Positions 1 through 28,931 of a stretch of 31,269 nt of DNA are shown piece by piece. The stretch comes from Cellulosilyticaceae bacterium. Lineage in GTDB: Bacteria; Bacillota; Clostridia; Lachnospirales; Cellulosilyticaceae. The notes below the pieces were generated by a model. The model was not told the DNA's origin. It made no database searches and saw nothing but the letters and a program-made list of their open reading frames with translations. The stretch is from assembly GCA_051650265.1 (NCBI GenBank), contig JBOFIR010000037.1, positions 1 through 31,269 on the forward strand. The letters run 5' to 3'. How positions within the stretch are numbered: position 1 is the stretch's first letter; the number at the start of each line of letters is the position of its first letter. The translations under genes were made by a program, and so were the position numbers.

Positions 1-1188
1 CAGACCAGTAGCAAGACGATGAGTGTAATCACCATGACGTTGATTGTTGCCATCTGTGGGTATATGGGTGTGGTTTATTTTTGTGGCATTAATATGGGGC
101 ACTTGGCAGAGCGCATGGTGTTTGATTTGCAGATGGGAAATATGTATACCCCTGTGTCAGATGAGGCGCTGCTCTCAGATACACGCTACGATATTGTGCG
201 AGAATTTCTAGATGAGCAGGGCATCGCGGTCAAGGATGATGTGTATTTTGAGACGTATCTGCCTCAGAAAGAGCAGTTTCACCAGCGGGTGAAATATGAT
301 TTTCCATTTTCAGCGATTGCACTAAGTGATTACAATGCGCTACTGAATATGCAGGGACTACCACCTATAGACTTGGCAGAGGATGAGTTTGCTACCCAGT
401 GGTATGCCCTAGCCAGTGATAGGGAGATTGCTGACTTTGTACAAGCACATCAAGTCTTAGAGACAGACAATGGTACGCTAAGGCTGGCTGAAAATCCAGT
501 ATATACGTATAAGCTGAGTAACAATCTGTATAATGCGTATACTTCTGGTATTTATATTATCCCAGATCATATGGTAGAGGGGCTGCTGGCTGTAGAGCAG
601 CAGCGAGCGATCAATCTGATAGAACCACTGCCCTATGACAAAGGTGCGAAGCTCGGGCAGCTATTTGATACGTATTATGCCAAAGAAGCTGAGGCGTATC
701 ATTTGCAGCAAACAGCCTTAAAACAACGGCAAGCACCCCTCCCTATTTATCATTTGAGAGCCAAAAGTGTGGAGGTTAGTGATGCCAAAAGCTACAACTT
801 CATCATGCAGTCAGTCGTTTTGTGTGGTGCCACAGTTCTTTTGGTCATTTGCTTCACGATGTTGGCGCTGCAACAGCTCTCTGATGCCACTCATTTCAAA
901 TACCGCTTTGGTGTACTCAGGAGGCTGGGTGTCGATGAAGCACGCATCAACCGTCTGATTCAAAAGCAGCTCGGGCTATGGTTTGGGCTTCCTATAGGAT
1001 TTGGATACTGTACGGGGCTGGCGATTTGTCTAGCTGTGATGTTTGGATGGGTGAATGAGACGAGAGCTTATATTGGGTTTGGGACACTGTTGATTCAAGT
1101 GGGTGCAATTGCGTTGGTATTAGGGATTTTATTTACCTGTTACTATATAGCGACGTATTTGTTGTTTAAGAGAATAGTGAACAAGTAG
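1..1188 (+). CDS. ABC transporter permease, FtsX/MacB-like C-terminal half (5' partial; the reading frame is open to nt 1)
   Basis: Frame 1 is open from the window edge, so the M at 19 is internal. Translation shows TM segment - large extracytoplasmic domain - 3 C-terminal TM helices, the FtsX-type permease topology. Stop TAG 1186-1188, followed by a terminator hairpin. Confidence 0.55.
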   Translation, partial: QTSSKTMSVITMTLIVAICGYMGVVYFCGINMGHLAERMVFDLQMGNMYTPVSDEALLSDTRYDIVREFLDEQGIAVKDDVYFETYLPQKEQFHQRVKYDFPFSAIALSDYNALLNMQGLPPIDLAEDEFATQWYALASDREIADFVQAHQVLETDNGTLRLAENPVYTYKLSNNLYNAYTSGIYIIPDHMVEGLLAVEQQRAINLIEPLPYDKGAKLGQLFDTYYAKEAEAYHLQQTALKQRQAPLPIYHLRAKSVEVSDAKSYNFIMQSVVLCGATVLLVICFTMLALQQLSDATHFKYRFGVLRRLGVDEARINRLIQKQLGLWFGLPIGFGYCTGLAICLAVMFGWVNETRAYIGFGTLLIQVGAIALVLGILFTCYYIATYLLFKRIVNK

Positions 1189-1192
1189 CACA

Positions 1193-1233
1193 AAAGGATA
1201 AATCTTAACAAAAGAGATTTATCCTTTTTGTTA
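1193..1233 (+). terminator. Rho-independent terminator
   Basis: Perfect 13-bp inverted repeat aaaggataaatct / agatttatccttt with 9-nt loop and T-run (ttttt) immediately 3'. Followed by ~100 bp of AT-rich sequence (candidate promoter region for the downstream operon, not pinpointed). Confidence 0.6.
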
Positions 1234-1342: not shown

Positions 1343-2314
1343 ATGACACAAAGAGAGAGATTTATCAAAACATTAAAAGGTGAAAAGATAGGAGGTCAGG
1401 TGCCACACTTTGAGCTGGTATTTTTCTTGACCATGGAGGCTTTTGGCAAGGTGCATCCTTCACAGAGACATTATGGTCAGTGGAACCAGATGAGCTATGC
1501 AGAGAAAAAACTACATATATACGATATGGCAGATCTTTATATTGAGACAGCAAGACGTTATGACCATGATGCGATTTTTGTGCATCCCAACCCAGGGGAC
1601 TTTGACAACGTGCAGTGGCTTCTTGAGACGATTAGAGAGAAGACAGGCGATACGTATTATCTGATGATGCATGGTGACCCAACTTGGTCGATCCCATCAG
1701 GAGATGACATGATGGACTTCGCAGCACAGATGTATGAGGAGCCGGAGAAGCTCAATGAGATTTCTCAAAGACGTGTGGAGCAATCCCTTGCATTCGCAAG
1801 CAAGCTAGATGCCAAAGGGCATCTTTTAGATGGCTTTGCCTTATGCTCTGACTACTGCTTCAACGTGAATCCATTTTTCAATGAAGAGAAGTTTGATGAG
1901 CTGATCGTGCCTTACCTTGCAGAGGTGATCAAAGGCTATCGTGATCTGGGGTATTATACGATCAAACATACAGATGGCAATATCATGCCGATCCTTCAGC
2001 AGATGGTGGACTGTAAGCCAGATGCCCTTCACTCACTTGATCCACAAGGTGGCGTTGATCTTGCAGAGGTCAAGCGGTTGTATGGGGATCAGGTCACACT
2101 TATTGGTAATGTCAACTGTGGTTTGCTTCAGACAGGGACAGAGGAAGAATGCCGTAGTGATGTGCTACGTACCTTAAAGCAAGGTATGGAAGGAGGCAAA
2201 GGCTTTATTTTCTCAACGTCTAACTGTGCCTATACAGGCCTACCACTTGAGCGATATGAGATGATGGTAGACTTGTGGCGTGAATATGGTAACTATGACA
2301 ACCAAAAGTGGTAA
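1343..2314 (+). CDS. Uroporphyrinogen decarboxylase (URO-D)/MtaA-fold family protein
   Basis: ATG 1343 preceded by AAAGGAG at 8 nt spacing (track start 1334 is GTG 9 nt upstream). N-terminus MTQRERFIKTLKGEKIGGQVP matches the MtaA/URO-D family start (ER-x-L-x-GE-x-D-VP). The MtaA Zn ligand motif H-x-C is not seen; IKHTDGN is present instead. 25 nt upstream of the sulfatase, with RBS AAGAGGAG. Confidence 0.5.
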   Translation: MTQRERFIKTLKGEKIGGQVPHFELVFFLTMEAFGKVHPSQRHYGQWNQMSYAEKKLHIYDMADLYIETARRYDHDAIFVHPNPGDFDNVQWLLETIREKTGDTYYLMMHGDPTWSIPSGDDMMDFAAQMYEEPEKLNEISQRRVEQSLAFASKLDAKGHLLDGFALCSDYCFNVNPFFNEEKFDELIVPYLAEVIKGYRDLGYYTIKHTDGNIMPILQQMVDCKPDALHSLDPQGGVDLAEVKRLYGDQVTLIGNVNCGLLQTGTEEECRSDVLRTLKQGMEGGKGFIFSTSNCAYTGLPLERYEMMVDLWREYGNYDNQKW

Positions 2315-2338
2315 TTCAAGCAAAAGAGGAGCGAATCA

Positions 2339-3729
2339 ATGACGAACATTGTTTTTATCTTAATAGATGATATGGGCTGGAAAGACCTAGCCTGCTATGG
2401 CAGTACATATTATGAAACACCTGAGATTGATAAGCTTGCCAAGGGCGGCATGCGCTTTGATCAGGCTTATGCAGCTTCTCCTGTGTGTTCACCCACTCGT
2501 GCGAGTATCATGAGTGGGAAGTATCCCGCGAGAGTACAGGTTACTGATTGGATTGGGGCATCGGCTAGAGGTCGCCTTATTGATGCACCTTATGTAGACC
2601 ATCTGCCTTTGGCAGAGAAGAGTCTGGGGTCTGCCTTGAAGGAGAATGGCTATGCCACCTGGCATGTGGGCAAGTGGCATCTAGGTGCCAAGCCGTACTA
2701 TCCAGACCAGCATGGTTTTGATGTGAATATCGGGGGCAATCACGCAGGGCACCCACACCATGGCTACTTTAGCCCTTATCAGCTAGAGAATCTAGAGGAG
2801 GGACCTGATGGCGAGTATCTAACAGATCGCCTCACCGAGGAGAGTATCACACTCATTCGTAATAGAGATAAGACCAAGCCTTTCTTCCTCAATTTGTGGC
2901 ACTACACAGTGCATACACCGGTACAGGCAAAGGCTGCAGATATTGCTTACTTTGAAGAGAAGGCGAAGCGTTTGGGATTAGATCAGCAAGTCGCACTGGT
3001 AGAGGGAGAGCATTTCCCTTGTGAGCACAAGAAAAATCAGCGGGTAATGCGCCGCGTTGTCCAGTCAGACCCAGCCTATGCAGCTATGATCTACAATCTA
3101 GACTGGAACGTTGGGCGATTGATGCAGGTCTTAGAAGCAGAAGGGATCTTGGAGGATACACTGATCATCTTCACTTCGGACAATGGTGGCCTTGCCACAG
3201 CAGAAGGTTCACCCACATGCAATGCCCACTGAGTGAGGGCAAAGGCTGGATGTATGATGGTGGTGTGAGAGAGCCGCTCATAGCTTATTGGAAGGGGACC
3301 ATCGGATCAGATAGCCTCAGCCATCGGTTGGTCACAAGCCCTGATTTTTATCCAACGTTCTTGGAGATAGCAGGTGCACCACTACAGCCTCAGCAGCATC
3401 AAGATGGTGAGAGCTTTGCGAACACGCTTAGGGGAGCAGCAGGGGAGAGACAGCAGCCCCTATTCTGGCACTACCCTCATTATGGCAATCAAGGTGGCAC
3501 ACCGTACTCAGCCATCCGAGATGGGGCATATAAGCTCATTTATTTCTATGAAGACGAGAGCGTTGCACTCTATGATCTCACACAGGATGTAGGGGAAACA
3601 CATAATCTAGCAGATCAGATGCCAGAAGTTGTAGAGGCACTTCTGGTAACCTTAAAGAAATGGGTGGTTGAAGTTGATGGGAGAATTCCAGTTACAAACC
3701 CAGCCTATACAGACAGGGATCATCTTTAA
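2339..3729 (+). pseudogene. Cys-type sulfatase (arylsulfatase family), frameshifted
   Basis: N-terminal ORF 2339-3232 carries the sulfatase signature LIDDMGW...CSPTRASIMSGKYP (FGly motif C-S-P-T-R, Cys codon ~2486). Sulfatase-like sequence continues in the +2 frame (3217-3729: PLSEGKGWMYDGGVREPL...). The frames are joined by restoring one C in the run aatgCCCact (3225-3227). Frame-1 stop TGA is at 3230-3232. Confidence 0.65.
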
Positions 3730-4600
3730 TATACAGAAGTTTTCGGTCCATGATGGACCAGGAATCCGTACAACGGTGTTTATGAAAGGCTGCCCCCTTC
3801 GCTGTAAGTGGTGCCACAACCCAGAAGGACTCGCTAAGAGACAGCAGCTTCAGTATATGGCAACCCAGTGTATTGGCTGTCAGAAGTGTGCACAGGTGTG
3901 TCAGCAGGGTGTGCATACATTTGGGAACCAAGTCCATCTCGTGGATGCTAAGAAGTGCACGCTCTGCGAAGCCTGTATGGCGGCGTGTCCTGCGCAAGCA
4001 CTTGTAAGATGTGGGGATGTGATGACGGTGCAGCAGGTGATGCAGGAGGTTCTAGAAGATCAAGTTTTTTATGGGGAAACTGGCGGCGTGACTTTCTCGG
4101 GGGGCGAGGCTTTGATGCAAAGTCCTTTTGTAACAGAGGTCTTAAGCGCTTGTAAAGCAGAAGGGATCCATACAGCCATTGATACATCAGGGTATTGCAA
4201 ATGGGAGGATCTTGAGCGGACACTGCCGTATTGCGATTTGTACCTGTATGATATCAAGAGTCTCAATCTGGCAAAGCACAAGGAGTTAACAGGGGTGGAA
4301 CCCACTTTGATCTTAGAGAATCTAAAGCGCCTGGATGCAGCGCAAAAGCCCATATGGATCAGGGTACCTGTTATTGGTGGCTTGAATGCCAATGAGCAAG
4401 AGATGCGGGAAATTGCCCAGTTCATCAAATCACTAAGCCATGTGGCGCAGACAACTTTGATGCCCTATCATGTGCTTGGTAAAGAAAAGTATCAGACATT
4501 GGGGCGGGTCTATGACTATGATGCAAGTGAGCTTGTGACACAGGAGATGCTTTTGAGTTATCAGGCCATCTTTGTGTCTGAGGGGATTTTATTAAAATAG
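3677..4600 (+). CDS. Glycyl radical enzyme activating enzyme (radical SAM, PFL2-class with ferredoxin-like insert)
   Basis: GIIFNIQKFSVHDGPGIRTTVFMKGCPLRCKWCHNPE is the hallmark Gly-rich + CxxxCxxC N-terminus of PflA-like activases. Two additional CxxCxxCxxxC clusters (CIGCQKCAQVC, CTLCEACMAAC) are typical of activases of GDH/CutC-type GREs. Start is ambiguous: TTG 3668 (track) or ATG 3677. It overlaps the sulfatase 3' end, which stops at 3729. Confidence 0.85.
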   Translation: MGEFQLQTQPIQTGIIFNIQKFSVHDGPGIRTTVFMKGCPLRCKWCHNPEGLAKRQQLQYMATQCIGCQKCAQVCQQGVHTFGNQVHLVDAKKCTLCEACMAACPAQALVRCGDVMTVQQVMQEVLEDQVFYGETGGVTFSGGEALMQSPFVTEVLSACKAEGIHTAIDTSGYCKWEDLERTLPYCDLYLYDIKSLNLAKHKELTGVEPTLILENLKRLDAAQKPIWIRVPVIGGLNANEQEMREIAQFIKSLSHVAQTTLMPYHVLGKEKYQTLGRVYDYDASELVTQEMLLSYQAIFVSEGILLK

Positions 4601-4615
4601 AGGTGAGGGTCAGGG

Positions 4616-6808
4616 ATGAATCGTACAGCTTTTTTAAGAAAGGTTACTATCAACAATGAGAATAAGATGATGCGCCGTGTGATGCCAGATGATTGGTCGG
4701 TAGCAGACAAGGCATGTAGCTTGATGGAAAGAAGAGCCTATGCAGTAGCGAAGGTACTTGAAGAGATGCCGCTCTATATAGGGGAGCAAGAATTGATCGT
4801 TGGTACAAGAACGATACTTGGTAGACTAGGTTCAGGCAAAGAACCAGAAGGGATCTCAGACTTTTGTGATGCAGTATTGCCAGCGTATGTTAATCAGCAG
4901 GATATAGACTTTTTTGGTTTTCATGCACCGCATCTGAAGACCCATGCTGCAGGTGATTATGGGATTATCCTACGCAAAGGGATTGATGGTGTTATTGCAC
5001 AGGCGAGGGAGCAATTAGAAGGCGAAATGCTTGAAGACCAAGCTGATTTTCTAAAAGCAGTGATCATCTGTTATCAGGGGCTAAGTACACTGATCAAGCG
5101 CTATAGTGACTATGCCCTGTTGTTGGCTACCCAAGAAGTGGATGCCACAAGAAAGGCGGAATTAGAGACTATTGCAACAGATTGTGAGTGGCTAGCCCAT
5201 CAACCCGCCCATGATTTTAAGCAGGCGTGCCAGATGCTATGGTTTGCGCATTTGACAGTCATGGTAGAAAATTTTGGGCTTATGAGCTATGGGAGGGTGG
5301 ATCAGGTACTTGCGCCTTATCTTGGAGTGATGCCAAAAGAACAAGCGCAGCAGTACATCGATTGTTTACTTCTTAAGATGTATGACCAGGTGGATCTCAA
5401 GGAATGTTACTATGGGACACATTCCTCACAGCCCAATATAACGATTGGGGGGATTACACCTGAGGGAGAAGATGCTATCAATGAGGTGACTTATTTACTC
5501 ATTGAAGGAAAGAAGCATACCAACCTACCTGACCCACAGTATGCTATTCGTATCCACAGCAAAAATCCTGAGCAGTATGTAGAGGCTGTCTGTGAACTTG
5601 CAGTAAAAGGTATCAATTGTGTCTCTTATTATAACGATGATCTTTGGATTGAGAGTATGTGCCATGCGGGCATATCACGGATACATGCCAATGACTATGC
5701 CTTTGATGTATGCCAAGATATGACAGTGGCTGGGAAGGGGGATTTTTGTGCATCTGGTGATATTTCACTCCTGCGTACCCTGCTTGATTATCTAGAAACT
5801 GTGTCTGCAGAATGTACTTGGGAGGTCTTATATGAGGGATTCAAGACACTTGCTATTCAAAAGATGGAAGAAGTGATTGGGCGATACAATCGTACACTAG
5901 AAGCCTTTATTGCATTTCATGAAGGCGATAGACAGAGGTATGTAGATCAAGTCAAAGCAGGTGAAGTCGGGCAGACTTTAGGATGGAATACATCTCTCAT
6001 GGCACCTATCCCTTTTACTTCAACACTATTTGAGGGGTGTATGGAGACCGCTACAGATTTGACACGAGTAGGCTGTCTACTCAAACATAGGGGCTTTTAC
6101 TTTATGGGGCCAACAGAGACCCTCAATGGGTTAAGTGCGATCAAATACTGTGTTTATGAGAAGAAAATGCTGAGTCTAGAGCAGGTCATTGCGGCCTATC
6201 AGTCAAATTATGAGGGGTTAGAAGGAGAGGTCATCAGACAGCACCTCCTTCATGCACCCAAATGGGGAAATGATGATGATTTTGTTGATCTACTTGCCAA
6301 AGATTTGTTTGAATCAGTCTGCCAAGAGGTGAGCAAACATCAGACACCAGATGGTGGGGTACATCTAGCAGGTCTGCATCAGGCACATCCTGTAGGTGAT
6401 GGCAAGTACTACGGCGCGACACCAGATGGTAGGCGTGCAGGTGAGCCCCTTACAGTATCTTTGTCACCTGCCAATGGGACAATGAAAAAAGGACCTTTAG
6501 CAGCGCTCAAATCTGTGGCAAAGCTTGATCCGAATTGTTGTCAGTGGAATAGCTGTTTCATGCTACAATACTTTAGTTCTGTCTTTGAAGGCAATGAGGG
6601 AATCACCAACTTCAAGAAGTTATTAGAAGGTTATTTTGCAATAGGTGGGATGCAGCATCAGCCCAATGTAGTAGATGTGGGTGCACTCAAGGCGGCACAA
6701 AGGGAGCCTGAAAAGTATAAGGATCTTATTGTGAGGATGTGGGGTGTTTCTGCCCACTTTGTAGACCTTACCAAAGAGATTCAAGATGAACTCATTAATC
6801 GTTTCTGA
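4616..6808 (+). CDS. Glycyl radical enzyme (PFL2/glycerol-dehydratase-like fold), divergent, substrate unassigned
   Basis: N-terminus RAYAVAKVLEEMPLYIGEQELIVGTRT resembles the GRE N-terminal region. C-terminal Gly-radical domain GGMQHQPNVVDVGALKAAQREPEKYKDLIVRMWGVSAHFVDLTKEIQDELINRF aligns to GG-Q-NV...PE-Y-DLIVRV(A/S)GYSA-F-L-KE-Q-E-I-R. Candidate thiyl loop NDYAFDVCQDMTV lies ~344 aa upstream of the radical Gly (Cys366, Gly710), consistent with GRE spacing. RBS GAGGTGAGGG. Confidence 0.8.
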   Translation: MNRTAFLRKVTINNENKMMRRVMPDDWSVADKACSLMERRAYAVAKVLEEMPLYIGEQELIVGTRTILGRLGSGKEPEGISDFCDAVLPAYVNQQDIDFFGFHAPHLKTHAAGDYGIILRKGIDGVIAQAREQLEGEMLEDQADFLKAVIICYQGLSTLIKRYSDYALLLATQEVDATRKAELETIATDCEWLAHQPAHDFKQACQMLWFAHLTVMVENFGLMSYGRVDQVLAPYLGVMPKEQAQQYIDCLLLKMYDQVDLKECYYGTHSSQPNITIGGITPEGEDAINEVTYLLIEGKKHTNLPDPQYAIRIHSKNPEQYVEAVCELAVKGINCVSYYNDDLWIESMCHAGISRIHANDYAFDVCQDMTVAGKGDFCASGDISLLRTLLDYLETVSAECTWEVLYEGFKTLAIQKMEEVIGRYNRTLEAFIAFHEGDRQRYVDQVKAGEVGQTLGWNTSLMAPIPFTSTLFEGCMETATDLTRVGCLLKHRGFYFMGPTETLNGLSAIKYCVYEKKMLSLEQVIAAYQSNYEGLEGEVIRQHLLHAPKWGNDDDFVDLLAKDLFESVCQEVSKHQTPDGGVHLAGLHQAHPVGDGKYYGATPDGRRAGEPLTVSLSPANGTMKKGPLAALKSVAKLDPNCCQWNSCFMLQYFSSVFEGNEGITNFKKLLEGYFAIGGMQHQPNVVDVGALKAAQREPEKYKDLIVRMWGVSAHFVDLTKEIQDELINRF

Positions 6809-6907
6809 GTTTTTTCTTCAAAAAGTTAGACCTTCTACACCAATTGGCGCTATAATAGATGGTAGAATAGTCTAATTTTGGGATAACACCAATAAGGTGG
6901 ATAAAGT

Positions 6908-8113
6908 ATGGAGGTAGGAGTGATGATGGTACTAGTGGTACTTAGCATAGCTGCTCTAGGGGTTGCAGCTTGGCAATATCATGAGCGACAAAAACTCCAG
7001 AGAAGGTTAGTGATTTTAGAGGCTATAGAAGAACTAGGGGAGCGATTCAATAGCCAATTAAAACTCAGTCAGTTAGTAGATCATATTGTGAAGACGCTAA
7101 AAAGGGAAATCGCTGCTGATATGGGTGCGCTGTTCTTAGTCAATGATGAGGGGAATAAGTTGGAACTACAAGTTGCACTTGGAAACAATGATGCACAAAT
7201 CGGGGAAAATTATTCACCACTAGGGGATAAGATTGCTGATTGGGTAGCGCATCATGGGGAGAGTGTGAATCTCAGAGACGCTATGACCAATGAAGTGATT
7301 AGGAACTGGTATGCGCAGGAGGTGGCGAGCTCACCGTATGAGTATGCATTGCTGACACTACCGATCAAAGATGATCACAAAGTAATCGGGGTCTTACAAT
7401 TTATCAATAGTACACCGAGGCGTGTGTTTGGAGAAGAAGACCAAAGCTTTGTAGAGGAAGTCATCCGAAGAAAAGTGGTGATGAGTCTGGAAAAGGCACA
7501 GCTCTATGAAAAGCTACGTACCACTTTTGTAGACTCTATACGTACTGTAGCGAGTGTTATTGATGCGAAGGATAAATATACCATAGGGCATTGTCACAGG
7601 GTAGCCGACTATGCCATACGTCTGGGGCGATATATGGGGCTTGAAGATGAAGCGATAGAGGATCTAGAATATGCGGCAATTCTTCATGATGTGGGTAAGA
7701 TTGGTATTAGTGATATGATCTTGAATAAGGCAACAAGCCTGACTCAGGAGGAATATGAACTGGTCAAACAACATCCTGTATTGGGCGCTGAGATTTTGAG
7801 CAAGATTACGACCCTCAAGGAAGAAGTGGTATGGGGGGCAAAGTATCACCATGAACGCTATGATGGTGGTGGTTATGGAGAGGGACTGAGTGGCAAGGAG
7901 ATCCCGCTTTATGCAAGGATTATCGCAATTGTAGACGCCTATGATGCCATGGTTGGCGATCGGGTGTACCACAAGGGGATTGCACCTGAGGAAGCCATTA
8001 CAAGGCTGCTAGAAGGCAAGGGGACACAGTTTGATCCGGCTCTTACCAATTTGTTTGTTCAGATGATTCGAGCAACTGAGAGAAGTAGAACACATACAAA
8101 AAGATCTTGCTAA
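6908..8113 (+). CDS. GAF domain-containing HD-GYP phosphodiesterase (c-di-GMP)
   Basis: N-terminal TM helix, GAF-like region, then HD-GYP motifs HDVGKIG, HHERYDGGGYGEGL and IVDAYDAM. Confidence 0.75.
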   Translation: MEVGVMMVLVVLSIAALGVAAWQYHERQKLQRRLVILEAIEELGERFNSQLKLSQLVDHIVKTLKREIAADMGALFLVNDEGNKLELQVALGNNDAQIGENYSPLGDKIADWVAHHGESVNLRDAMTNEVIRNWYAQEVASSPYEYALLTLPIKDDHKVIGVLQFINSTPRRVFGEEDQSFVEEVIRRKVVMSLEKAQLYEKLRTTFVDSIRTVASVIDAKDKYTIGHCHRVADYAIRLGRYMGLEDEAIEDLEYAAILHDVGKIGISDMILNKATSLTQEEYELVKQHPVLGAEILSKITTLKEEVVWGAKYHHERYDGGGYGEGLSGKEIPLYARIIAIVDAYDAMVGDRVYHKGIAPEEAITRLLEGKGTQFDPALTNLFVQMIRATERSRTHTKRSC

Positions 8114-8130
8114 GCAAGGTCTTTTTTGTT
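8101..8130 (+). terminator. Rho-independent terminator overlapping the stop codon
   Basis: aagatcttgc-taag-gcaaggtctt stem (10 bp, one G.U) followed by ttttttgttt. Confidence 0.5.
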
Positions 8131-8222
8131 TGCTGGTCTAAAGGTGAATACACCCTAATACAATGGGTAGTGGGCAAATGTGAAACTTTGCGCCATAAAA
8201 CGTGTATAAAGGGGTGATTGGT

Positions 8223-10247
8223 ATGACATTAGCAATCATTATGATCGCAACACTTGTAGGCATCATTGTATTACTGTGGTTACTGGGATTCAAAATTATT
8301 CGAAATGATCGTGTAGGAATTGTTGAGAAATGGTGGTCAACGAAAGGTTCTTTGAAAGAGCAGATTATCGCACTAGGCGGCGAAGCGGGTTATCAGCCAG
8401 AGCTTCTTCGTGGTGGGATTCACTTTAGATCCCCACTCTTTTACAAAGTACATATTGAGCCGCTTGTGACTGTGCCACAGGGCAAGATGGCCTATGTCTT
8501 TTCAAGAGATGGACAGGTGCTAGAACCTACGCAGACATTGGGGCGTGTGGTTCCAGCGTGCAACAACTTTCAAGATGTACGGGCATTCCTCACTGGTGGG
8601 GGACAAAAAGGACCGCAACGTGGGATTATCCGTGAGGGAACCTATGCTTTTAACTTGGCGCAGTTTGTCATCATCACAGAAAACAAGACCTATTATCTCA
8701 AGATGGGTAACCGTGAGGAACAAGCGGACTTAGCTGAGATGGCGCAGCTCATTGCGATGAGAGGTGGTTTCTCACCTATAGTGATTCAAGGGAATCAAGA
8801 CCAAGTAGGAATTGTCACAGTACATGATGGGCCATCTCTAGGAAGAGATGATATTATTTGTCCAACAGTAGGTGATGATGCCAATGCAGAGCACTATCAT
8901 AACAACTTCCAAGATATCAATGCTTTCTTAGCCGCAGGTGGCTACCGTGGTAGACAGCTTCAAGTCTTAGCAGACGGAACATACTTTATCAATAGACTGT
9001 TTGCAACGGTTGAATTTATCCCTAAGGTAGTGATACCAGTAGGATTTGTAGGTGTTGTTGTCTCTTACACAGGGGCCAAGGGAGAAGACTCTTCTGGTAG
9101 CGATTACAAGCATGGTGAACTGGTCAAGAAAGGGTATAGAGGGGTGTGGAGTGAGCCACTTATGCCCGGGAAATATGCTTTTAATATCTATGCAGGGAGC
9201 ATTATTCAGGTGCCTACTACCAACGTCATCCTTAAGTGGATTAGCAATCAAACAGGGAATCATAAATATGATGAGAACTTGACAGAGGTCAGCCTGATTA
9301 CAAAGGATGCATTTGAACCGAGTTTGCCACTTTCTGTTGTCTTCCATATTGATTACCGCAAGGCGCCTTATGTGATTCAGCGATTTGGAAACATCAAGAT
9401 GCTAGTCGATCAAACCCTCGATCCAATGATCTCTGCGTACTTCAAGAATGTTGGGCAGACCAAGACGCTGATCGAGCTCATCCAGCAGCGTAATGAGATT
9501 CAGGCACAAAGTTCTGATGAGATGAAAGCGAAGTTTGATCACTACAACCTAGAGCTTGAAGAAGTACTGATCGGGACGCCTGGGGCCTCTAAGTCAGATA
9601 ATAATATCGAGACGATCCTCACGCAGCTCCGTAGTCGCCAGATTGCCAAAGAGCAGTTAGACACTTATGAAACACAACAAAGAGCAGCGGAGAAGGAAAA
9701 GGAACTTAAAGAAGCTGAAGCTGTTGCCAAACAACAGACAGCCCTTACAGAGTCTGATATCAACATTCGTATTCAAGAAAATCAAGGTAAGGCCGAGCTG
9801 ATGAAAGCAAGGCAAGATGCAGAGAAGATCCAAAGACTCTCCGAAGCAGATGCTTACAAGATCAAGCAGCAGTCAGAAGCGGAAGCGTATCGTATCAAGA
9901 TCACTGCATCAGCAGATGCTGACAAGGAAGCACGCGTGGGGATCTCCAAGGCGATTGCAGCCAAGGAGCAGGTCAGTGCCTATGGTGGACCACAGTATAA
10001 GGTTATGGGTGATGTGATGGGCTCCTTTGCGACAGCCATCAAAGAAGGGCAAATCGATATTGTACCTAAGACTGTGGTCAATGCAGGAGGGGAAGGCAGT
10101 ACTGGTAATGCCTTTGAATCACTCATTATGCTACTTCTAAGTGAGAAGCTTACAAGCCTCAATGATTCAGAAGTAAGTATGGAGTCTCCGCAGGTTGAGC
10201 GCATCAAACAAGAAATATTGAGCCAAATAGCTGAGCAAAAAGAATAG
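8223..10247 (+). CDS. Flotillin-like SPFH/band-7 domain protein with long C-terminal coiled coil
   Basis: ATG 8223 with AAAGGGG RBS (track GTG 8202 is 7 codons upstream). N-terminal TM (LAIIMIATLVGIIVLLWLLGF), SPFH-like core, then an Ala/Glu/Lys/Gln-rich heptad-like region (AEKEKELKEAEAVAKQQ...EADAYKIKQQSEAEAYRIKI) as in FloT/YqiK-type flotillins. 674 aa is long for the family. Confidence 0.5.
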   Translation: MTLAIIMIATLVGIIVLLWLLGFKIIRNDRVGIVEKWWSTKGSLKEQIIALGGEAGYQPELLRGGIHFRSPLFYKVHIEPLVTVPQGKMAYVFSRDGQVLEPTQTLGRVVPACNNFQDVRAFLTGGGQKGPQRGIIREGTYAFNLAQFVIITENKTYYLKMGNREEQADLAEMAQLIAMRGGFSPIVIQGNQDQVGIVTVHDGPSLGRDDIICPTVGDDANAEHYHNNFQDINAFLAAGGYRGRQLQVLADGTYFINRLFATVEFIPKVVIPVGFVGVVVSYTGAKGEDSSGSDYKHGELVKKGYRGVWSEPLMPGKYAFNIYAGSIIQVPTTNVILKWISNQTGNHKYDENLTEVSLITKDAFEPSLPLSVVFHIDYRKAPYVIQRFGNIKMLVDQTLDPMISAYFKNVGQTKTLIELIQQRNEIQAQSSDEMKAKFDHYNLELEEVLIGTPGASKSDNNIETILTQLRSRQIAKEQLDTYETQQRAAEKEKELKEAEAVAKQQTALTESDINIRIQENQGKAELMKARQDAEKIQRLSEADAYKIKQQSEAEAYRIKITASADADKEARVGISKAIAAKEQVSAYGGPQYKVMGDVMGSFATAIKEGQIDIVPKTVVNAGGEGSTGNAFESLIMLLLSEKLTSLNDSEVSMESPQVERIKQEILSQIAEQKE

Positions 10248-10308: not shown

Positions 10309-11499
10309 CTATTTATTTTTGTAAAACTCAGCGAGTTGTGTGAAAGCTGGAAGTGAGCGTTCAATCTGAGCGTAACTTGTGCAGTATGCAAGGCGTACAT
10401 AGCCAGGGCAACCAAAAGCTGAGCCTGGAACAAGTAAGAGATTGAAGCGTTTGGCATCTTCACAGAATTGCTTATCATCTGCAATTAAGCTTTTTGGAAA
10501 GAGGTAAAATGCGCCTTGTGGCTTGATACACTCAAAGCCAATGCTTGTAAGGTGATTGTAGAGCAGGTCACGGTTGCGCTTATAGATGTTGACATCTACT
10601 TCATTGCCAAGACATTTGGCGATCACACGCTGGAAGAGTGATGGGGCATTGACAAAGCCAAGGATACGGTTGGCAACGTTGAGGGCGCCCATCATATCTT
10701 GGAAGTGATCCATCTCACCATGTGCGACGATGTAGCCGATACGCTCACCAGGTAAAGAAAGTGACTTGCTATAAGAGTAACCGATGAAGCTATTACGGTA
10801 GTAGCTGAGTATGTATGGCACTTTGGCATCATCATATACAAGCTCACGATAAGGTTCATCTGAGATGAGGTAGATACTTGTGCCAAGTGCTTGTTGCTTT
10901 TCTTCAAGTACTTGTGCAAGACCACGTAGTGCTGCATCAGAATAGATCACCCCCGTTGGATTATTTGGTGAGTTGATGATAACTGCTTTGGTACGCGCTG
11001 TGATCAGTGTAGCGAGCGCCTCAAGGTTTGGCTCAAAGGTCTCTGTGTCAGCAGGAACTACGACAAGTTTGCCATCGAAGTTGCTCACGTAATTGCGATA
11101 TTCACCGAAGAATGGTGCGAAGACAATCACTTCATCCTCTGGGTTCAGAAGCGTTTTGAGGAGGATGTTGAGGCCACCAGCAGCGCCGCATGTCATGACG
11201 ATATTGTCTACGCCAAGAGATACACCATGCAGGTTGCTTAAGTGCGCAGCAATGTCTTGGCGCACATCCTCATAGCCAGAGTTGTTCATATAACCATGAA
11301 CGAGGTTTGGTGTCTCTTGACTTAGGATCTCAGAGATGGCAGATGTAATTGCCTCGGGTGGTTCTACGTTAGGGTTGCCTAAGCTAAAGTCAAAAACATT
11401 CTCTGCGCCGTGAATGGCAGCAAGGCGTTTGCCTTCTTCGAACATGGCGCGGATTGTAGAACTTCCTGCCTCAAGTGTTTGCATTTTGTTTGATATCAT
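10309..11499 (-). CDS. PLP-dependent aminotransferase, class I/II (aspartate/aromatic aminotransferase-like)
   Basis: SYSKSLSLPGERIGY contains the S-x-S-K...G-x-R PLP-lysine motif, with an N-terminal aminotransferase fold. Start chosen at MISNKMQTLEAG (ATG complement 11497-11499), with AAAGGAG 7 nt upstream. The track's 30-codon upstream extension lacks an RBS. Confidence 0.8.
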   Translation of the reverse strand: MISNKMQTLEAGSSTIRAMFEEGKRLAAIHGAENVFDFSLGNPNVEPPEAITSAISEILSQETPNLVHGYMNNSGYEDVRQDIAAHLSNLHGVSLGVDNIVMTCGAAGGLNILLKTLLNPEDEVIVFAPFFGEYRNYVSNFDGKLVVVPADTETFEPNLEALATLITARTKAVIINSPNNPTGVIYSDAALRGLAQVLEEKQQALGTSIYLISDEPYRELVYDDAKVPYILSYYRNSFIGYSYSKSLSLPGERIGYIVAHGEMDHFQDMMGALNVANRILGFVNAPSLFQRVIAKCLGNEVDVNIYKRNRDLLYNHLTSIGFECIKPQGAFYLFPKSLIADDKQFCEDAKRFNLLLVPGSAFGCPGYVRLAYCTSYAQIERSLPAFTQLAEFYKNK

Positions 11500-11672
11500 A
11501 TGAATACTCCTTTGGTAAAATACTAAATTATTAAAAACATTATAGCATATTATAAACAAAAATAGAGAGGACGTTTTACCCAAAATCCACACAAAGCTTT
11601 GTTTTTAATGTTATATAATTAATAAAAAGTGTATTTTAATTCACAGATAATATATTTTGAAAGTCAAATCAT

Positions 11673-11701
11673 TTGATATTCAAACTAAATTGTGCTATAC
11701 T
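11673..11701 (+). promoter_or_regulatory. Sigma-A-type promoter for degV-family gene
   Basis: TTGATA - 17 bp - TATACT with TG at -15/-14 (tgcTATACT), 35 nt upstream of the ATG at 11736. Confidence 0.45.
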
Positions 11702-12831: not shown

Positions 12832-15123
12832 GTGAGGCTATCAACAAAGACGACACTGATTTTTTTATTGACAATGTTGATTAGTGGCGTTGCTTATGTA
12901 TTAACGGGTACATACCTGGCAGGCTATTTATATAAAGGTGAGACAACACGTATTACAGGGATTACTGGTAGTGTCATGAGTAGAGTGGATAGTGAAGTAG
13001 TTAAGCTGACGGGAAAAACAAAAGATTATGCATCATTAATTGGAGCAGCCCGCAGAATCCAGAGCCAGTTTGGTGTTGATGGGTTTAAAGCACTTCAGCT
13101 AGAGTCACCCTTTAAACAAGATGAGATTGATTTTAAGCTTTTTCTCACGCCAGAATTTGAAGTGCAACAAATATATGGAGAGTTGGGACAGTATGAGCAA
13201 GAGGAACTTGAAAAAATTTTAGCCCAGGTACAGCCTATGATTAATCCGAGTGAGCCGGGAGTGATTAATAGGATGATCGGTACGATATCCGATCCGTATT
13301 TTGTGGGGGTTGTTCCTTTGTTTTTTGAGGATTATAAAGTAGATGGGTACTTCGTGTTGGTGGAGCACTTTGGTCAAACAAAAATATCTGAGATTGGCGC
13401 ACGTATGATGAGAGAGTTGAATCTTGTGACGACATATGATAAGGACTCAGCACAGGTTCAAGAGCTAAGAGAAGGTGTGAATGTGGCGATTGTCTATGAT
13501 GCAGAGACTGTGCGCAGCTACTATCAACTGTCATGTACAGGCGTTGGGCAGCCGTACTATATTGAGTTAGTAGAGCCGCTTGTGATCTGGCTTCTAACCA
13601 AGGGGAATATCGATATTGTAATCGGGCTTGTAACGGTCTTCTCACTATTGATTTTTTTAGGGTTATGGAGGGTAATGGACCAGGTAGTGGTTCAGCGCCT
13701 AAGGTATATGACAGATGCAATTAATTGTATGCGTGAAAGTTCTGATTTGACGGTTAGGCTGGAAAAAGGGACTGCAAAGGATGAAATTGCTGAGCTTGCT
13801 GAGGGAATCAATAATATGGTAGAGGCACTAGAAGAAAGCCATAGCCTTCTGGTAGCCAATGAACAAAAGTACAGCCAGTTGGCCAAGTATGATAGTTTAA
13901 CAGGACTTTATAACCGCTATCGGATCACTTATCTCATGGAAGAAATCAAAATGCCATACACAGTATATTTTGTGGATATTGATAACTTCAAAGAGATCAA
14001 TGATGCCATGGGACATAATATAGGTGATGAGGTCATTTGCGAAGTTGCTAAGCAGCTGAAAAGTTTTATTGATAGACATACAAAGGTAGCACGTATCGGC
14101 GGAGATGAGTTCGTGATCTTAAGACTCGGAAGCTTCAGTGAAGAAGCGCGGGAAGCCTTCGCCAAAAGTCTTCTTGGGAGTATCAATCGTGTTTATAGCT
14201 TTGGTAATTATACCTTTGAGATCAATGGAAGTATGGGAATTAGTTATTACCCAGAGCATGCAGTGCAGCAGAAGAATTTGCTGCGCTATGCAGATATTGC
14301 AATGTACCATGCCAAGCAACATGGTGGCAGAATTTATAGTGTTTTTAGAGCAGAGATGTTAGAAGAAATAGAGCTTGAGGCAGAACTAAGAGAAGCGATT
14401 ACCAAAGATGAGTTCAACGTGTTTTACCAACCGATCTATGATATGCAGGCGGCACGCATCATGGGGGCAGAGGCTTTGGTAAGATGGGAAAAAAATGGTG
14501 AGTTGATCTCACCTATCAAGTTCATCCCTCTTGCCAAAAAGACAGGAGATATTGCATTAATTGATCAGATAGTTCTTGAACAGGCATGCCAGTTTTGTAA
14601 AAGACAGCGAGAGCTTGGTAAGGTCAACTTTGAAGTTTCCGTCAATGCCTCTTATCGTTGGCTTATGCAGGCTGATGTGATGCAATATATTGATTATGCT
14701 TTAGATGAGGCAGGCCTTCCACCACAAGCGCTTAAGTTAGAGATTACAGAAGATGAAGTCATGGATAATCCAAAACAAGTGATTGCACTACTTATGCAGA
14801 TCAAGGCCAAAGGAATCCGTATTGCACTAGATGACTTTGGGGTGGGTTATTCTTCCTTTAATTATATCAAGATGCTACCTATTGATGTACTCAAGATTGA
14901 TAGAAGTCTACTCTTAGAAGTAGAGCAAGATAATAAGACAAAATCCATTATTGAGACGATGATTATGCTTTCTCACACACTTGGTTTGGAGGTTGTGTGT
15001 GAAGGGGTGGAGACATCGGAGCAAATGAACTTGTTACAAACTATTGGATGCGATAAAATCCAGGGGTACTTGATTAGCAAGCCTGTTCCCGAACAAGCAT
15101 TTTTATTATTGGAAAATAAATAA
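12832..15123 (+). CDS. Membrane sensor diguanylate cyclase/phosphodiesterase (periplasmic sensor-HAMP-GGDEF-EAL)
   Basis: Two TM segments bracketing a ~230-aa extracytoplasmic domain, then a HAMP-like segment. GGDEF domain with intact RIGGDEFVIL. EAL domain with EALVRW, DDFGVGYSS, KIDRSLL and EGVET all intact. Confidence 0.85.
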   Translation: MRLSTKTTLIFLLTMLISGVAYVLTGTYLAGYLYKGETTRITGITGSVMSRVDSEVVKLTGKTKDYASLIGAARRIQSQFGVDGFKALQLESPFKQDEIDFKLFLTPEFEVQQIYGELGQYEQEELEKILAQVQPMINPSEPGVINRMIGTISDPYFVGVVPLFFEDYKVDGYFVLVEHFGQTKISEIGARMMRELNLVTTYDKDSAQVQELREGVNVAIVYDAETVRSYYQLSCTGVGQPYYIELVEPLVIWLLTKGNIDIVIGLVTVFSLLIFLGLWRVMDQVVVQRLRYMTDAINCMRESSDLTVRLEKGTAKDEIAELAEGINNMVEALEESHSLLVANEQKYSQLAKYDSLTGLYNRYRITYLMEEIKMPYTVYFVDIDNFKEINDAMGHNIGDEVICEVAKQLKSFIDRHTKVARIGGDEFVILRLGSFSEEAREAFAKSLLGSINRVYSFGNYTFEINGSMGISYYPEHAVQQKNLLRYADIAMYHAKQHGGRIYSVFRAEMLEEIELEAELREAITKDEFNVFYQPIYDMQAARIMGAEALVRWEKNGELISPIKFIPLAKKTGDIALIDQIVLEQACQFCKRQRELGKVNFEVSVNASYRWLMQADVMQYIDYALDEAGLPPQALKLEITEDEVMDNPKQVIALLMQIKAKGIRIALDDFGVGYSSFNYIKMLPIDVLKIDRSLLLEVEQDNKTKSIIETMIMLSHTLGLEVVCEGVETSEQMNLLQTIGCDKIQGYLISKPVPEQAFLLLENK

Positions 15124-22429: not shown

Positions 22430-22459
22430 GAAGCAGGTTTATTGCGAGGAGGGAAAAGA

Positions 22460-22597
22460 ATGAAACACGTTAAAACTCTTAATACTAAAAACTTAAAAAA
22501 CAGTGCAGCTAAAGGTGGTTGTGGTGAGTGTCAAACATCTTGCCAATCAGCATGTAAAACATCTTGTACTGTAGGAAATCAAGCTTGCGAAAAATAA
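22460..22597 (+). CDS. SCIFF (six cysteines in forty-five residues) ranthipeptide precursor
   Basis: Not in the ORF track. Hand translation gives MKHVKTLNTKNLKNSAAKGGCGECQTSCQSACKTSCTVGNQACEK (exactly 45 aa, TAA 22595-22597). Leader ends in GG and the core has six Cys. RBS GAGGAGGG 7 nt upstream. Immediately followed by its radical SAM maturase. Confidence 0.85.
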   Translation: MKHVKTLNTKNLKNSAAKGGCGECQTSCQSACKTSCTVGNQACEK

Positions 22598-22613: not shown

Positions 22614-22650
22614 AAGGCTATCGGCGTCAAGTTGGTAGCCTTATTTAATT
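22614..22650 (+). terminator. Weak intrinsic terminator/attenuator hairpin between SCIFF precursor and maturase
   Basis: 7-bp stem aaggcta / tagcctt with 15-nt loop, followed by atttaatt. Confidence 0.3.
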
Positions 22651-22682
22651 ATTCACATCATAGATGCAGAAAGGAAATCGAC

Positions 22683-24038
22683 ATGATTCATAAATTTAAA
22701 TTTGAAAACTCAAATATCGTAATGGATATTCATAGTGGCGCGGTACACCTTCTTGACGAAGTTGCTTACGAGATCGTAGAAGATGTACTTGCTTTAGCAA
22801 AAGACGAAGTATTAGGTAAGTATCAAGACCAGTTCCAGCAAGATGATCTGCTTGAAGCAGTTGAAGAACTCCTTGAACTCAAAGAGCAAGGAATGCTTGG
22901 AACAGAAGATACATATAGAGATCTTGTACCAGCATTCATGGATAGACAACCTGTAGTTAAAGCACTTTGTCTTCACGTAGCACATGACTGTAACCTCAAA
23001 TGTAAGTATTGCTTTGCAGGAGAAGGGGAGTACCATGGCGAGCGTGGCATGATGAGCGCAGAGGTTGGTAAAGCTGCGATCGATTTCCTTGCAAAAAACT
23101 CAGGTAATCGTAAAAATATCGAAGTAGACTTCTTTGGTGGAGAGCCACTTATGAACTTTGATGTTGTCAAAGAAGTTGTAGACTATGCAAGAAGCATTGA
23201 AGCAGAAGCTGGCAAGAACTTCAGATTTACAATGACAACAAATGGTGTACTCTTAAGTGATGAGATCATCGACTACCTCAATGAGCATATGCACAATGTG
23301 GTACTAAGTCTTGATGGTAGACCAGAAGTCAATGACCGTATGCGTCCAACATGCAATGGCAAAGGAAGCTACGATGTGATCCTTCCAAAGTTCAAGAAAC
23401 TTGTGGAAAAAAGAGGTGGTAAACAATACTATCTTCGTGGAACATTTACACACCACAACCTTGACTTTGCAGCGGATGTCACACATATGGCAGATCAAGG
23501 ATTCGGTGAAGTATCTGTAGAGCCAGTTGTTGCACCAACTGAGATGGACTACGCACTTCAAACAGGTGATATCAAACTCATCTGCAAAGAGTATGAAAAA
23601 CTTGCAAAAGAGATGCTTAGAAGACACAAAGAAGATGGCGAATGCTTCAACTTCTTCCACTTCATGATCGATCTTACAGGTGGACCATGTGTACACAAAC
23701 GTCTTGCAGGATGTGGTTCAGGGACAGAGTACCTTGCAGCAACACCAAATGGCGAACTTTACCCATGTCACCAATTTGCTGGTATGCCAGAATTCAAGAT
23801 GGGTGATGTATGGACAGGCGTAACAAATACTGAGCGTCGTTGTGAGTTCGAAAAATGCAACGTTTATAGCAAAGATGAATGTGCAAATTGTTGGGCGAAA
23901 TTCTACTGTAGTGGTGGTTGCGCAGCGAACTCATACCATTTCCATGGGCATATCAATGACACTTATGAGATTGGTTGTGAGCTTCAAAAGAAGCGTATTG
24001 AATGTGCAATTGGTCTAAAAGCTGAGCTTTGTGACTAA
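22683..24038 (+). CDS. SCIFF radical SAM/SPASM maturase (CteB-like thioether-forming enzyme)
   Basis: ATG 22683 with AAAGGAAA RBS (the track start at TTG 22632 lies inside the hairpin). CNLKCKYC radical-SAM CxxxCxxC motif near the N-terminus. C-terminal Cys-rich SPASM region (GGPCVHKRLAGCGSG...CANCWAKFYCSGGC). Product is 451 aa. Confidence 0.85.
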   Translation: MIHKFKFENSNIVMDIHSGAVHLLDEVAYEIVEDVLALAKDEVLGKYQDQFQQDDLLEAVEELLELKEQGMLGTEDTYRDLVPAFMDRQPVVKALCLHVAHDCNLKCKYCFAGEGEYHGERGMMSAEVGKAAIDFLAKNSGNRKNIEVDFFGGEPLMNFDVVKEVVDYARSIEAEAGKNFRFTMTTNGVLLSDEIIDYLNEHMHNVVLSLDGRPEVNDRMRPTCNGKGSYDVILPKFKKLVEKRGGKQYYLRGTFTHHNLDFAADVTHMADQGFGEVSVEPVVAPTEMDYALQTGDIKLICKEYEKLAKEMLRRHKEDGECFNFFHFMIDLTGGPCVHKRLAGCGSGTEYLAATPNGELYPCHQFAGMPEFKMGDVWTGVTNTERRCEFEKCNVYSKDECANCWAKFYCSGGCAANSYHFHGHINDTYEIGCELQKKRIECAIGLKAELCD

Positions 24039-27211: not shown

Positions 27212-27244
27212 TGCGTGTAGAATAGAGATAAGGAAGTGATAACC

Positions 27245-27997
27245 ATGTTAACAGAAGAAAGACAACAATTGATTTTGCAAAGGCTGAGACAACAAGGCAG
27301 TGTCAGCGTTGGTGAACTAGTGGAGTTGTTTGAGACGTCAGAGTCTACAATCAGGAGGGACTTGACTGCTTTAGGTGAAAAAGGACAACTCAAAAAAATA
27401 CATGGTGGCGCTATGCTCAGTGAGGGGGTTGCCTCTCATGTAGAGTATCGCATGGATCATAAGCAGGGGATGAATCCCGCCCAGAAGGAGCGCATTGCAA
27501 GACATGCAGCAAAGTTTATTCGGGATGGGGATGTGATTTATCTCGATGCAGGAACAACAACAGAACTTATGATTGAGTATATCAATGCAGATAATTTGAT
27601 TGCGGTGACCAATGGTATTGGTCATGTGACAAAACTTCTCCGTAAGGGGATTCAGACAATCATTATAGGTGGGCAGGTAAAGGCTACTACAGAGGCAATC
27701 GTAGGTGTTGGTGCAATAGGGGACCTAGATAAGTATCAGTTTACTAAAGGTTTCTTTGGTGCCAATGGTGTAGGTAGCCAAGGGTATACGACACCTGATA
27801 TGGAAGAGGCTATGGTCAAGGAAAAAGCCATGCAGCACTGCAATGAAGCCTATGTGTTAGCAGATAGTAGCAAGATTGGTAAAGTGAGTTTTGTACGCTT
27901 TGCTCAGATTGATGAAGCGACACTCATTACCAATGATAAAGTGGATAAGAAATTACATGAAAAGACAATGATAATAGAGGTGGACAGCAATGATTAG
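27245..27997 (+). CDS. fruR: DeoR-family transcriptional repressor of the fructose operon
   Basis: N-terminal HTH (LILQRLRQQGSVSVGELVELFETSESTIRRDL), C-terminal DeoR sugar-phosphate-binding domain. First gene of the fruR-fruK-fruA arrangement. ATG 27245 is 7 nt after AAGGAAG (track start GTG 27236). Confidence 0.8.
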   Translation: MLTEERQQLILQRLRQQGSVSVGELVELFETSESTIRRDLTALGEKGQLKKIHGGAMLSEGVASHVEYRMDHKQGMNPAQKERIARHAAKFIRDGDVIYLDAGTTTELMIEYINADNLIAVTNGIGHVTKLLRKGIQTIIIGGQVKATTEAIVGVGAIGDLDKYQFTKGFFGANGVGSQGYTTPDMEEAMVKEKAMQHCNEAYVLADSSKIGKVSFVRFAQIDEATLITNDKVDKKLHEKTMIIEVDSND

Positions 27998-28898: not shown

Positions 28899-28931
28899 AA
28901 GAGGACCAAAGACAGCAAAGGAGATGACAGC

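Follow-up and report, generated by a model that had tools for sequence, protein, structure and literature searches.

Do four tightly packed bacterial genes, for a uroporphyrinogen decarboxylase (URO-D)-like protein, a sulfatase, an activase and a glycyl radical enzyme (GRE), encode one pathway, or do the last two form a module that merely lies beside the others? The question arises at positions 1343-6808 of contig JBOFIR010000037.1, from a Cellulosilyticaceae bacterium. The window analysed here is that entire contig of a metagenome-assembled genome (MAG), 31,269 bp long. An earlier note, made from the sequence alone, had proposed that the block encodes a desulfation-coupled anaerobic radical pathway. 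We favour another answer, with a probability of roughly 60%: the activase and the GRE constitute a module in their own right, the GRE belongs to a clade marked by a C-Q-D catalytic loop and is a probable C5 radical dehydratase or isomerase, and the URO-D-like and sulfatase neighbours are incidental.

In bacteria of the gut and rumen, GREs catalyse difficult anaerobic reactions, and so far every clade to be characterised has brought to light a route of metabolism that was new (for choline, hydroxyproline, isethionate and anhydroglucitol). A claim of a sulfatase-coupled URO-D pathway would mislead annotation if accepted, and the comparative data present these neighbours as incidental.

A glycyl radical enzyme with a C-Q-D loop

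Open reading frame (ORF) calling with Pfam and NCBIfam profile searches found the four genes co-directional and tightly packed, where the earlier note had placed them, and confirmed their domains:

1343..2314, + strand: URO-D/MtaA-superfamily protein, 323 aa (PF01208, 82.6 bits)
2339..3729, + strand: type I sulfatase, split (PF00884 and SGSH_C; motif CSPTR)
~3677..4600, + strand: GRE activase, radical SAM (TIGR02494, 365.5 bits; cut-off 174.35)
4616..6808, + strand: 730-aa GRE of the C-Q-D clade (PF02901, 371 bits; PF01228, 76 bits)

The TIGR02494 score bears out the assignment as an activase. The protein has Radical_SAM and Fer4 domains, the motif CPLRCKWC and two ferredoxin-like Cys clusters, with all Cys motifs kept; its start may be TTG 3668 instead of 3677.

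The 730-aa protein carries the marks of the GRE superfamily: the barrel domain, the Gly-radical domain, a catalytic Cys and an adjacent activase. Its radical glycine is G710, in VRMWGVSAHF (R-x-W-G-V-S-A-H-F across the clade); it aligns with the radical Gly motif of glycerol dehydratase (GD) and is Gly in 55/55 clade members. The catalytic loop is C366-Q367-D368, where C366 aligns with C433 of GD and is invariant in the clade. The position of D368 is Asp in 54 of the 55 members, and the C-x-E of the characterised eliminases and isomerases, namely GD, 1,2-propanediol dehydratase (PD), CutC, HypD, IslA, HpsG, YbiW/PflD and HplG, is not found here; according to a June 2026 review of the superfamily, every one of these characterised enzymes keeps C-x-E. 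C366, Q367, D368, H110, Q272, H588, H591 and G710 are each kept in 54-55 of the 55 members. Of the 123 columns with at least 96% conservation among 54 relatives, the window GRE retains 119, and its four changes are conservative.

The enzyme had been described as divergent and outside the characterised families, and this holds. It falls below every NCBIfam equivalog cut-off (PFL2-3, TIGR01774, 365 against 678; HypD, 323/1100; CutC, 309/1050; HpsG, NF048011, 308/1000; PFL, 117/994). It is 22-27% identical to all solved GREs, the best match being GD (1r8w, 26%). Its AlphaFold model (pLDDT 89, pTM 0.90) gives TMq values of 0.78-0.81 against GD, PD and CutC. The best homologue in a collection of 5.8 billion proteins is 50% identical; the best 120 homologues are nearly all of ~730 aa, 41-50% identical, and come from Paludicola, Christensenella, Merdivicinus and Oscillospiraceae MAGs.

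Searched exhaustively, a set of 1.84 billion cluster representatives yielded 1430 GRE-like proteins at 1e-30 or better, and the 141 best full-length ones were examined. About 13 of these carry C-Q-D, all at ~370 bits or more. The others have C-x-E or a different third residue, and below ~370 bits C-x-E predominates. Eight representatives (P0408, P0411, P0424, P0427, P0443, P0448, P0475 and P0496) have Thr or Ala at the radical-glycine position and match the aminoacyl radical enzymes described in 2024.

The clade was found in Oscillospiraceae, Christensenellaceae and related Clostridia, at 76 loci in species-representative genomes and in many metagenomic clusters; in a neighbour-joining (NJ) tree the window GRE branches off deeply and on its own. 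We found no description of the clade in the literature on GREs tied to sulfatases, to an FGGY kinase plus aldolase, to deoxyribose or to sugar alcohols. The 2026 review mentions no sulfatase- or URO-D-linked GRE and describes no enzyme like the window's, in line with the earlier claim that no characterised GRE pathway has this composition. Judged by its sequence, the window GRE is an intact member of a discrete, uncharacterised C-Q-D clade, and together with the activase it appears to be a genuine, functional two-gene module.

Partners of the clade and a candidate substrate

For the 76 loci and further contigs, ORFs were called, clustered and annotated. Partner counts were taken over 68 distinct non-window loci, and tblastn searches were run over 82 GRE loci. 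The partners, with their number of loci, were:

Activase, 50/68 (most of the others are incomplete contigs); the only constant partner
FGGY kinase, XylB-like (325 bits), 13/68
Fe-alcohol dehydrogenase (FeADH), 8/68
GntR regulator, 6/68
DeoC, true equivalog (196.8 bits; cut-off 117.3), 5/68
Adenine deaminase, true equivalog, 5/68
Ribose/xylose-type ABC transporter (XylF-like binding protein), 5/68
GH29 fucosidase, 4/68
GH78 rhamnosidase, 4/68
Melibiase, 4/68
Sulfatase within 7 kb, 3/68

One recurrent architecture is [GntR]-DeoC-FGGY-FeADH-activase-GRE; the nearest two relatives of the window GRE, P0002 and P0003, are among those that have it. The members linked to DeoC, FGGY kinase and FeADH are spread over the whole clade in the NJ tree. 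Christensenellaceae have instead XylF-like binding protein-ABC-permease-FGGY-activase-GRE-sensor kinase-regulator; here the activase and GRE sit where a classical xyl operon has xylose isomerase. Other loci contain fucosidases, rhamnosidases, GH31 (Merdivicinus), melibiase or heparinase-like genes. The neighbour clusters of GH13-like proteins, Opp-type ABC transporters, WYL regulators and ABC-2 permeases gave no functional clue.

Several loci have features of their own. The contig that carries P0003 (L109) encodes a second, 688-aa GRE paralogue at 3774-5840, in the order GntR-DeoC-FGGY-FeADH-GRE2-activase-GRE. In Paludicola sp. MB14-C6 (L001, CP133133.1) the cassette DeoC-FGGY-FeADH-activase-GRE is flanked by transposases (Transposase_mut x3, DDE_Tnp_1, Y1_Tnp) and its FGGY kinase gene is broken into two ORFs, which suggests that this cassette is mobile and possibly decaying. 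Adenine deaminase (TIGR01178, 653 bits) lies just downstream of the GRE in L015, L017, L018, L020 and L059, and L108 has an adenosine deaminase close to its GRE (10635-11675). Taken with DeoC, these deaminases hint that the clade may be connected with the breakdown of nucleosides or ribose.

The partners are a XylB-like kinase, a true DeoC and an FeADH, and for this reason we consider a C5 sugar or polyol the likely kind of substrate. From membership in the two families, the activase would make a 5'-deoxyadenosyl radical and install a radical on G710. The radical would then move from G710 to C366, whose thiyl radical would take a hydrogen from a carbon that bears a hydroxyl in a sugar-like substrate. 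By analogy with GD and YbiW/PflD, D368, in place of the general-base Glu, would deprotonate that hydroxyl; the vicinal C-O bond would break and the hydrogen would be returned, leaving a deoxy-carbonyl product. In other genomes this product or its phosphate could pass to the XylB-like FGGY kinase, DeoC and FeADH. A pentitol or pentose would thus become a 2-deoxypentose, from which DeoC would yield glyceraldehyde-3-phosphate and acetaldehyde, with FeADH handling the acetaldehyde or a keto intermediate.

The assignment of the substrate is much less certain than the reading as a whole. That it is a C5 sugar or polyol giving a 2-deoxypentose is a hypothesis, with perhaps a little under one chance in four of being right. 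Slightly more tentative still is the wider claim that the clade performs a new GRE reaction, the radical dehydration of a C5 sugar or polyol to 2-deoxypentose followed by kinase and DeoC. Candidate substrates are ribitol, D-arabinitol and ribose (with loss of the 2-hydroxyl as in ribonucleotide reductase and then reduction by FeADH), or the corresponding phosphates. Sulfoquinovose and anhydro-sugars were considered too, an idea that came from the GH31 neighbours in Merdivicinus and from the S1_16-like sulfatase of the window; no test supports them. If the C5 proposal is true, the clade would supply a new anaerobic route from C5 to C3 plus C2, plugged in some genomes, the window's included, into loci for sulfated or fucosylated glycans. 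Cultured carriers of the clade are Paludicola sp. MB14-C6 and Christensenella intestinihominis AF73-05CM02.

The sulfatase, the URO-D-like protein and the four-gene block

The sulfatase had been reported as a single gene for a Cys-type enzyme. Its type stands, by PF00884 and by the formylglycine motif C-S-P-T-R, which fits the C/S-x-P-x-R of type I S1 sulfatases. Its reading frame is not uninterrupted; a frameshift had been missed, and because the gene is split the observation of the block counts as partly confirmed. The pieces are:

2339..3232, + strand: sulfatase N-terminal ORF, 297 aa (PF00884, 157.8 bits), with a premature stop from the frameshift
3217..3729, + strand: sulfatase C-terminal ORF, 170 aa, in another frame (SGSH_C, 73.8 bits; matches the sulfatase-domain tail)
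3224..3226, + strand: frameshift site (1-base deletion), with 3 C in a row against the 4 implied by orthologues

Adding one C to the run gives a 463-aa protein whose junction, SPTCNAPLSEGKGW, is an exact match to intact orthologues. Intact sulfatases of 458-459 aa from Niameybacter/Holtiella and from related metagenomic contigs share 76-79% identity with the rebuilt protein. Its N-terminal and C-terminal parts show identities of 85% and 67%, against 85% and 68% between intact orthologues. Since the stretch beyond the frameshift has not diverged more than would be expected, the frameshift would be either a very recent lesion or an assembly error. The N-terminal fragment is carried at NCBI as an annotated protein (P0269).

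The translation has no signal peptide. The rebuilt protein matches PDB 6ust, a GalNAc-6-sulfate sulfatase from gut Clostridia (4.5e-177), and 9fo1, a kappa-carrageenan sulfatase of S1_16 (7e-132), over the full length and with the same Cys-type C-x-P-x-R motif, the difference being that the window copy is interrupted. We predict a cytoplasmic carbohydrate sulfatase. No anaerobic sulfatase-maturating enzyme (anSME) is encoded on the 31-kb contig. The one radical SAM/SPASM gene, at 22632-24038, was considered for this role and is a SCIFF maturase (TIGR03974, 722 bits; anSME model, 110 against a cut-off of 349). Directly upstream of it, at 22442-22597, lies a SCIFF-type precursor peptide (...GGCGECQTSCQSACKTSCTVGNQACEK). 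The window's sulfatase has its closest orthologues (76-79%) in three contexts, where they stand alone; none of the three (0/3) includes a GRE or URO-D gene. On contig L105 the very closest orthologue has, 5 kb upstream, a PL8 polysaccharide lyase of the chondroitin/hyaluronate lyase type (1-2622), an arrangement that fits a glycosaminoglycan-type substrate for that sulfatase.

The URO-D fold given for the first gene is upheld by PF01208 (gathering threshold 23.9 bits), with the match limited to model positions 160-346, the C-terminal half. The protein scores about a tenth of the equivalog cut-offs (HemE, 21.7 against 303; MtaA, 30.2 against 400), and the zinc motif H-x-C of MtaA (H-I-C) is replaced by H-T-D. 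The only match to a solved structure is to MtaA (PDB 4ay7) and is weak (E 0.005, query residues 201-289). There is no corrinoid protein or cobalamin riboswitch near the gene.

The URO-D-like protein, whose homologues number over 6000 and are 72-79% identical at best, is far more conserved than the GRE. At 20 loci with orthologues of 64-79% identity, a tblastn search reaching out to 8 kb gave no match to the GRE, the activase or the sulfatase. These orthologues belong to arrays of paralogues accompanied by an AraC regulator, or else have ddl on one side and the rpmG-secE-nusG cluster on the other. In two Eisenbergiella-like contigs (L083/L084, 3677-8972) four PF01208 genes stand beside an AraC regulator, three in tandem and one divergent, and one of the four is 77% identical to the window's protein. 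This family is abundant in Clostridia. URO-D-family genes occur near the GRE in 2 of the 82 loci (L061 and L036), where they are 24% identical to the window's. A URO-D-sulfatase pair conserved without a GRE was also looked for and was not found at the orthologue loci of either gene. The URO-D-like protein is probably not part of the GRE system.

The layout of the block depends on these further features:

1186..1233, + strand: hairpin with U-run, the intrinsic terminator of the upstream gene and 5' edge of the block (dG -19.8 kcal/mol, z -8.5)
6827..6856, + strand: promoter-like site TAGACC-18-TATAAT (10/12 consensus positions; a consensus match only)
6908..8113, + strand: GAF-HD-GYP c-di-GMP phosphodiesterase (Pfam HD_5, GAF)
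8098..8126, + strand: intrinsic terminator, 13-bp stem with U-run (consensus scan)

Most of the arrangement had been read correctly. The junctions are 24 nt between the URO-D-like and sulfatase genes (25 had been counted), a 53-nt overlap between sulfatase and activase, and 15 nt between activase and GRE. A GGAG-type ribosome-binding site precedes each of the four genes, as had been noted. Both boundaries hold as well: no shuffle of 200 folded as well as the upstream hairpin, which had escaped the consensus terminator scan because it is AT-rich, and the sole consensus terminator downstream lies past the GAF-HD-GYP gene, at 8098-8126. Spacing and terminator positions are compatible with co-transcription of the four genes, which is probable. 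The HD-GYP gene need not belong to the GRE unit, since the promoter-like site separates them, and tblastn found an HD-GYP homologue in none of the 82 GRE loci. An Rfam search of the whole window gave no family at threshold; for a riboswitch or RNA leader upstream of the block, the only sub-threshold match was the terminator hairpin itself.

Could the block nevertheless be a dedicated pathway, in which the sulfatase frees an alcohol, the GRE eliminates or dehydrates it, and the URO-D-like protein decarboxylates or handles a methyl or acyl group? Such a pathway would suit the operon-like spacing without internal terminator, and a sulfatase lacking a signal peptide would share the compartment of the GRE and act on imported sugars. 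Sulfatases also adjoin the GRE elsewhere, so the pairing is not unique to this contig. One uncultured Oscillospiraceae bacterium (L009) has, all on one strand, AraC-?-sulfatase-sulfatase-activase-GRE-sulfatase-sulfatase-GH95-sulfatase-GH97, that is, five sulfatases with GH95 and GH97; another locus (L055) has AraC-sulfatase-activase-GRE, with the sulfatase directly upstream of the activase. In L061 a URO-D-family gene is directly upstream of the activase and GRE.

However, the activase-adjacent sulfatases of L009 and L055 belong to other subfamilies, ~33-35% identical to the window's (one sulfatase of L009, five genes downstream, is 63% identical), and the URO-D-family genes of L061 and L036 are only 24% identical. 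Sulfatases occur at only 3 of the 68 clade loci, and the sulfatase-linked GREs (window, L009, L055, L026) are not monophyletic but scattered on the NJ tree, so that a subclade of them was rejected. No other locus among the 82 GRE loci has both sulfatase and URO-D genes. The window's sulfatase is frameshifted, and the only SPASM enzyme on the contig is the SCIFF maturase, not an anSME. The earlier note had named lack of co-conservation as grounds for giving up its proposal, and this is what the counts give (0/20 URO-D-like loci, 0/3 sulfatase contexts, 3/68 clade loci). Since no close orthologue of the URO-D-like protein or the sulfatase in these sets adjoins a GRE, the four genes do not form a conserved unit, and we regard the desulfation pathway as unlikely.

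The variety of neighbours and the differing sulfatase subfamilies fit feeder enzymes upstream of a common GRE step rather than a fixed sulfatase-GRE couple. The clade is sometimes recruited into sulfated-glycan loci, and equally into loci with fucosidase, rhamnosidase, GH31, melibiase or heparinase-like genes. The sulfatases, like the glycosidases elsewhere, would be at most interchangeable feeders, and the neighbours in the window are probably a lineage-specific juxtaposition.

We find it even less credible that the locus is a decaying or rearranged patch without coherent function, a recently acquired activase and GRE beside a dying sulfatase. The frameshift would fit, as would the solitary position of the window GRE (no relative above 50% identity among the 5.8 billion proteins), the transposases and split FGGY gene around the Paludicola homologue, and the unequal GC contents of the genes (0.40, 0.48-0.50 and 0.44-0.46). 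Yet the GRE keeps its highly conserved positions (119/123) and all catalytic residues, and the activase all its Cys motifs; sulfatase decay is limited to the single indel, and the remaining contig genes look intact.

Several points weigh against a self-contained activase-GRE module acting on a C5 compound. The substrate assignment draws solely on gene neighbourhoods; these are heterogeneous across the clade, and many loci have an activase and GRE with no recognisable partner. DeoC, FGGY kinase and FeADH are absent from the 31-kb contig. The frameshift may have arisen in the assembly, and the sulfatase would then be functional. In some genomes sulfatase and module could be functionally linked: the spacing is tight, the 53-nt overlap included, and L009 and L055 too have a sulfatase immediately 5' of the activase.

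Elsewhere in the window, a second gene of c-di-GMP turnover, HAMP-GGDEF-EAL (12832-15123), accompanies the GAF-HD-GYP gene (6908-8113); in L108 a GGDEF gene likewise follows the GRE homologue. A 681-aa SPFH/Band 7 protein (8202-10247) has a long C-terminal extension, residues ~500-681, without Pfam or NCBIfam match. At 27236-30821 lies a fructose-type operon with a DeoR regulator, a PfkB kinase (1-phosphofructokinase-like) and PTS EIIA-EIIB-EIIC.

Comparison with characterised systems

The nearest solved structures and sequences are GD (Clostridium butyricum, 1r8w) and PD (Roseburia inulinivorans, 5i2a; 9rco). The window GRE shares their barrel fold (TMq ~0.80), their activase type with two auxiliary clusters and the alignment of the Cys and Gly loops, and keeps H164 of GD as H110. 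It is 24-27% identical to them and, like its clade, ~55 residues shorter at the N-terminus, and it has C-Q-D where they have C-V-E. Mapped from GD to the clade, S282 becomes L/F, Y339 becomes Q272, E435 becomes D368, D447 is variable and Y640 becomes H588. Q272, D368, H588 and H591 are invariant in the clade.

This bears on whether the clade is a variant 1,2-propanediol or glycerol dehydratase without microcompartment, disposing of propanediol derived from fucose or rhamnose. The fucosidases, rhamnosidases, GH95, FucO-like FeADH and FGGY kinases of clade loci would suit such a role, as would the relationship to GD and PD just described. But identity to them is low, the TIGR01774 score falls short of its cut-off (365 against 678), and the site residues of GD are replaced by the clade's own. 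Clade loci showed neither an aldehyde dehydrogenase nor shell genes, their FGGY kinase resembles XylB and not FucK, RhaB or GlpK, and the aldolase is DeoC and not FucA. A diol dehydratase is thus improbable, on a par with the decaying patch. GD and PD partner 1,3-propanediol dehydrogenase or microcompartment genes; the C-Q-D clade partners a sugar kinase and DeoC.

The C-S lyases IslA/IseG and HpsG are the nearest precedent for a sulfur-related GRE locus, through organosulfur metabolism. They cleave the C-S bonds of sulfonates without a sulfatase, with an Arg/Gln/Arg sulfonate anchor (2026 review), and the window GRE scores 308 against the HpsG cut-off of 1000.

The GRE isomerases YbiW and PflD (8id7, 8id0) convert 1,5-anhydroglucitol-6-phosphate or 1,5-anhydromannitol-6-phosphate to 1-deoxyfructose-6-phosphate, which an aldolase then splits to glyceraldehyde-3-phosphate and a small carbonyl compound (2026 review). 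They are 22-24% identical to the window GRE and keep C-x-E. The C-Q-D clade departs from this motif, common to all characterised eliminases and isomerases, and stands repeatedly beside DeoC, a pentulose-type kinase and an alcohol dehydrogenase. These FGGY-DeoC-FeADH partners suggest for the C-Q-D clade the same logic, from sugar to aldolase, as in YbiW/PflD.

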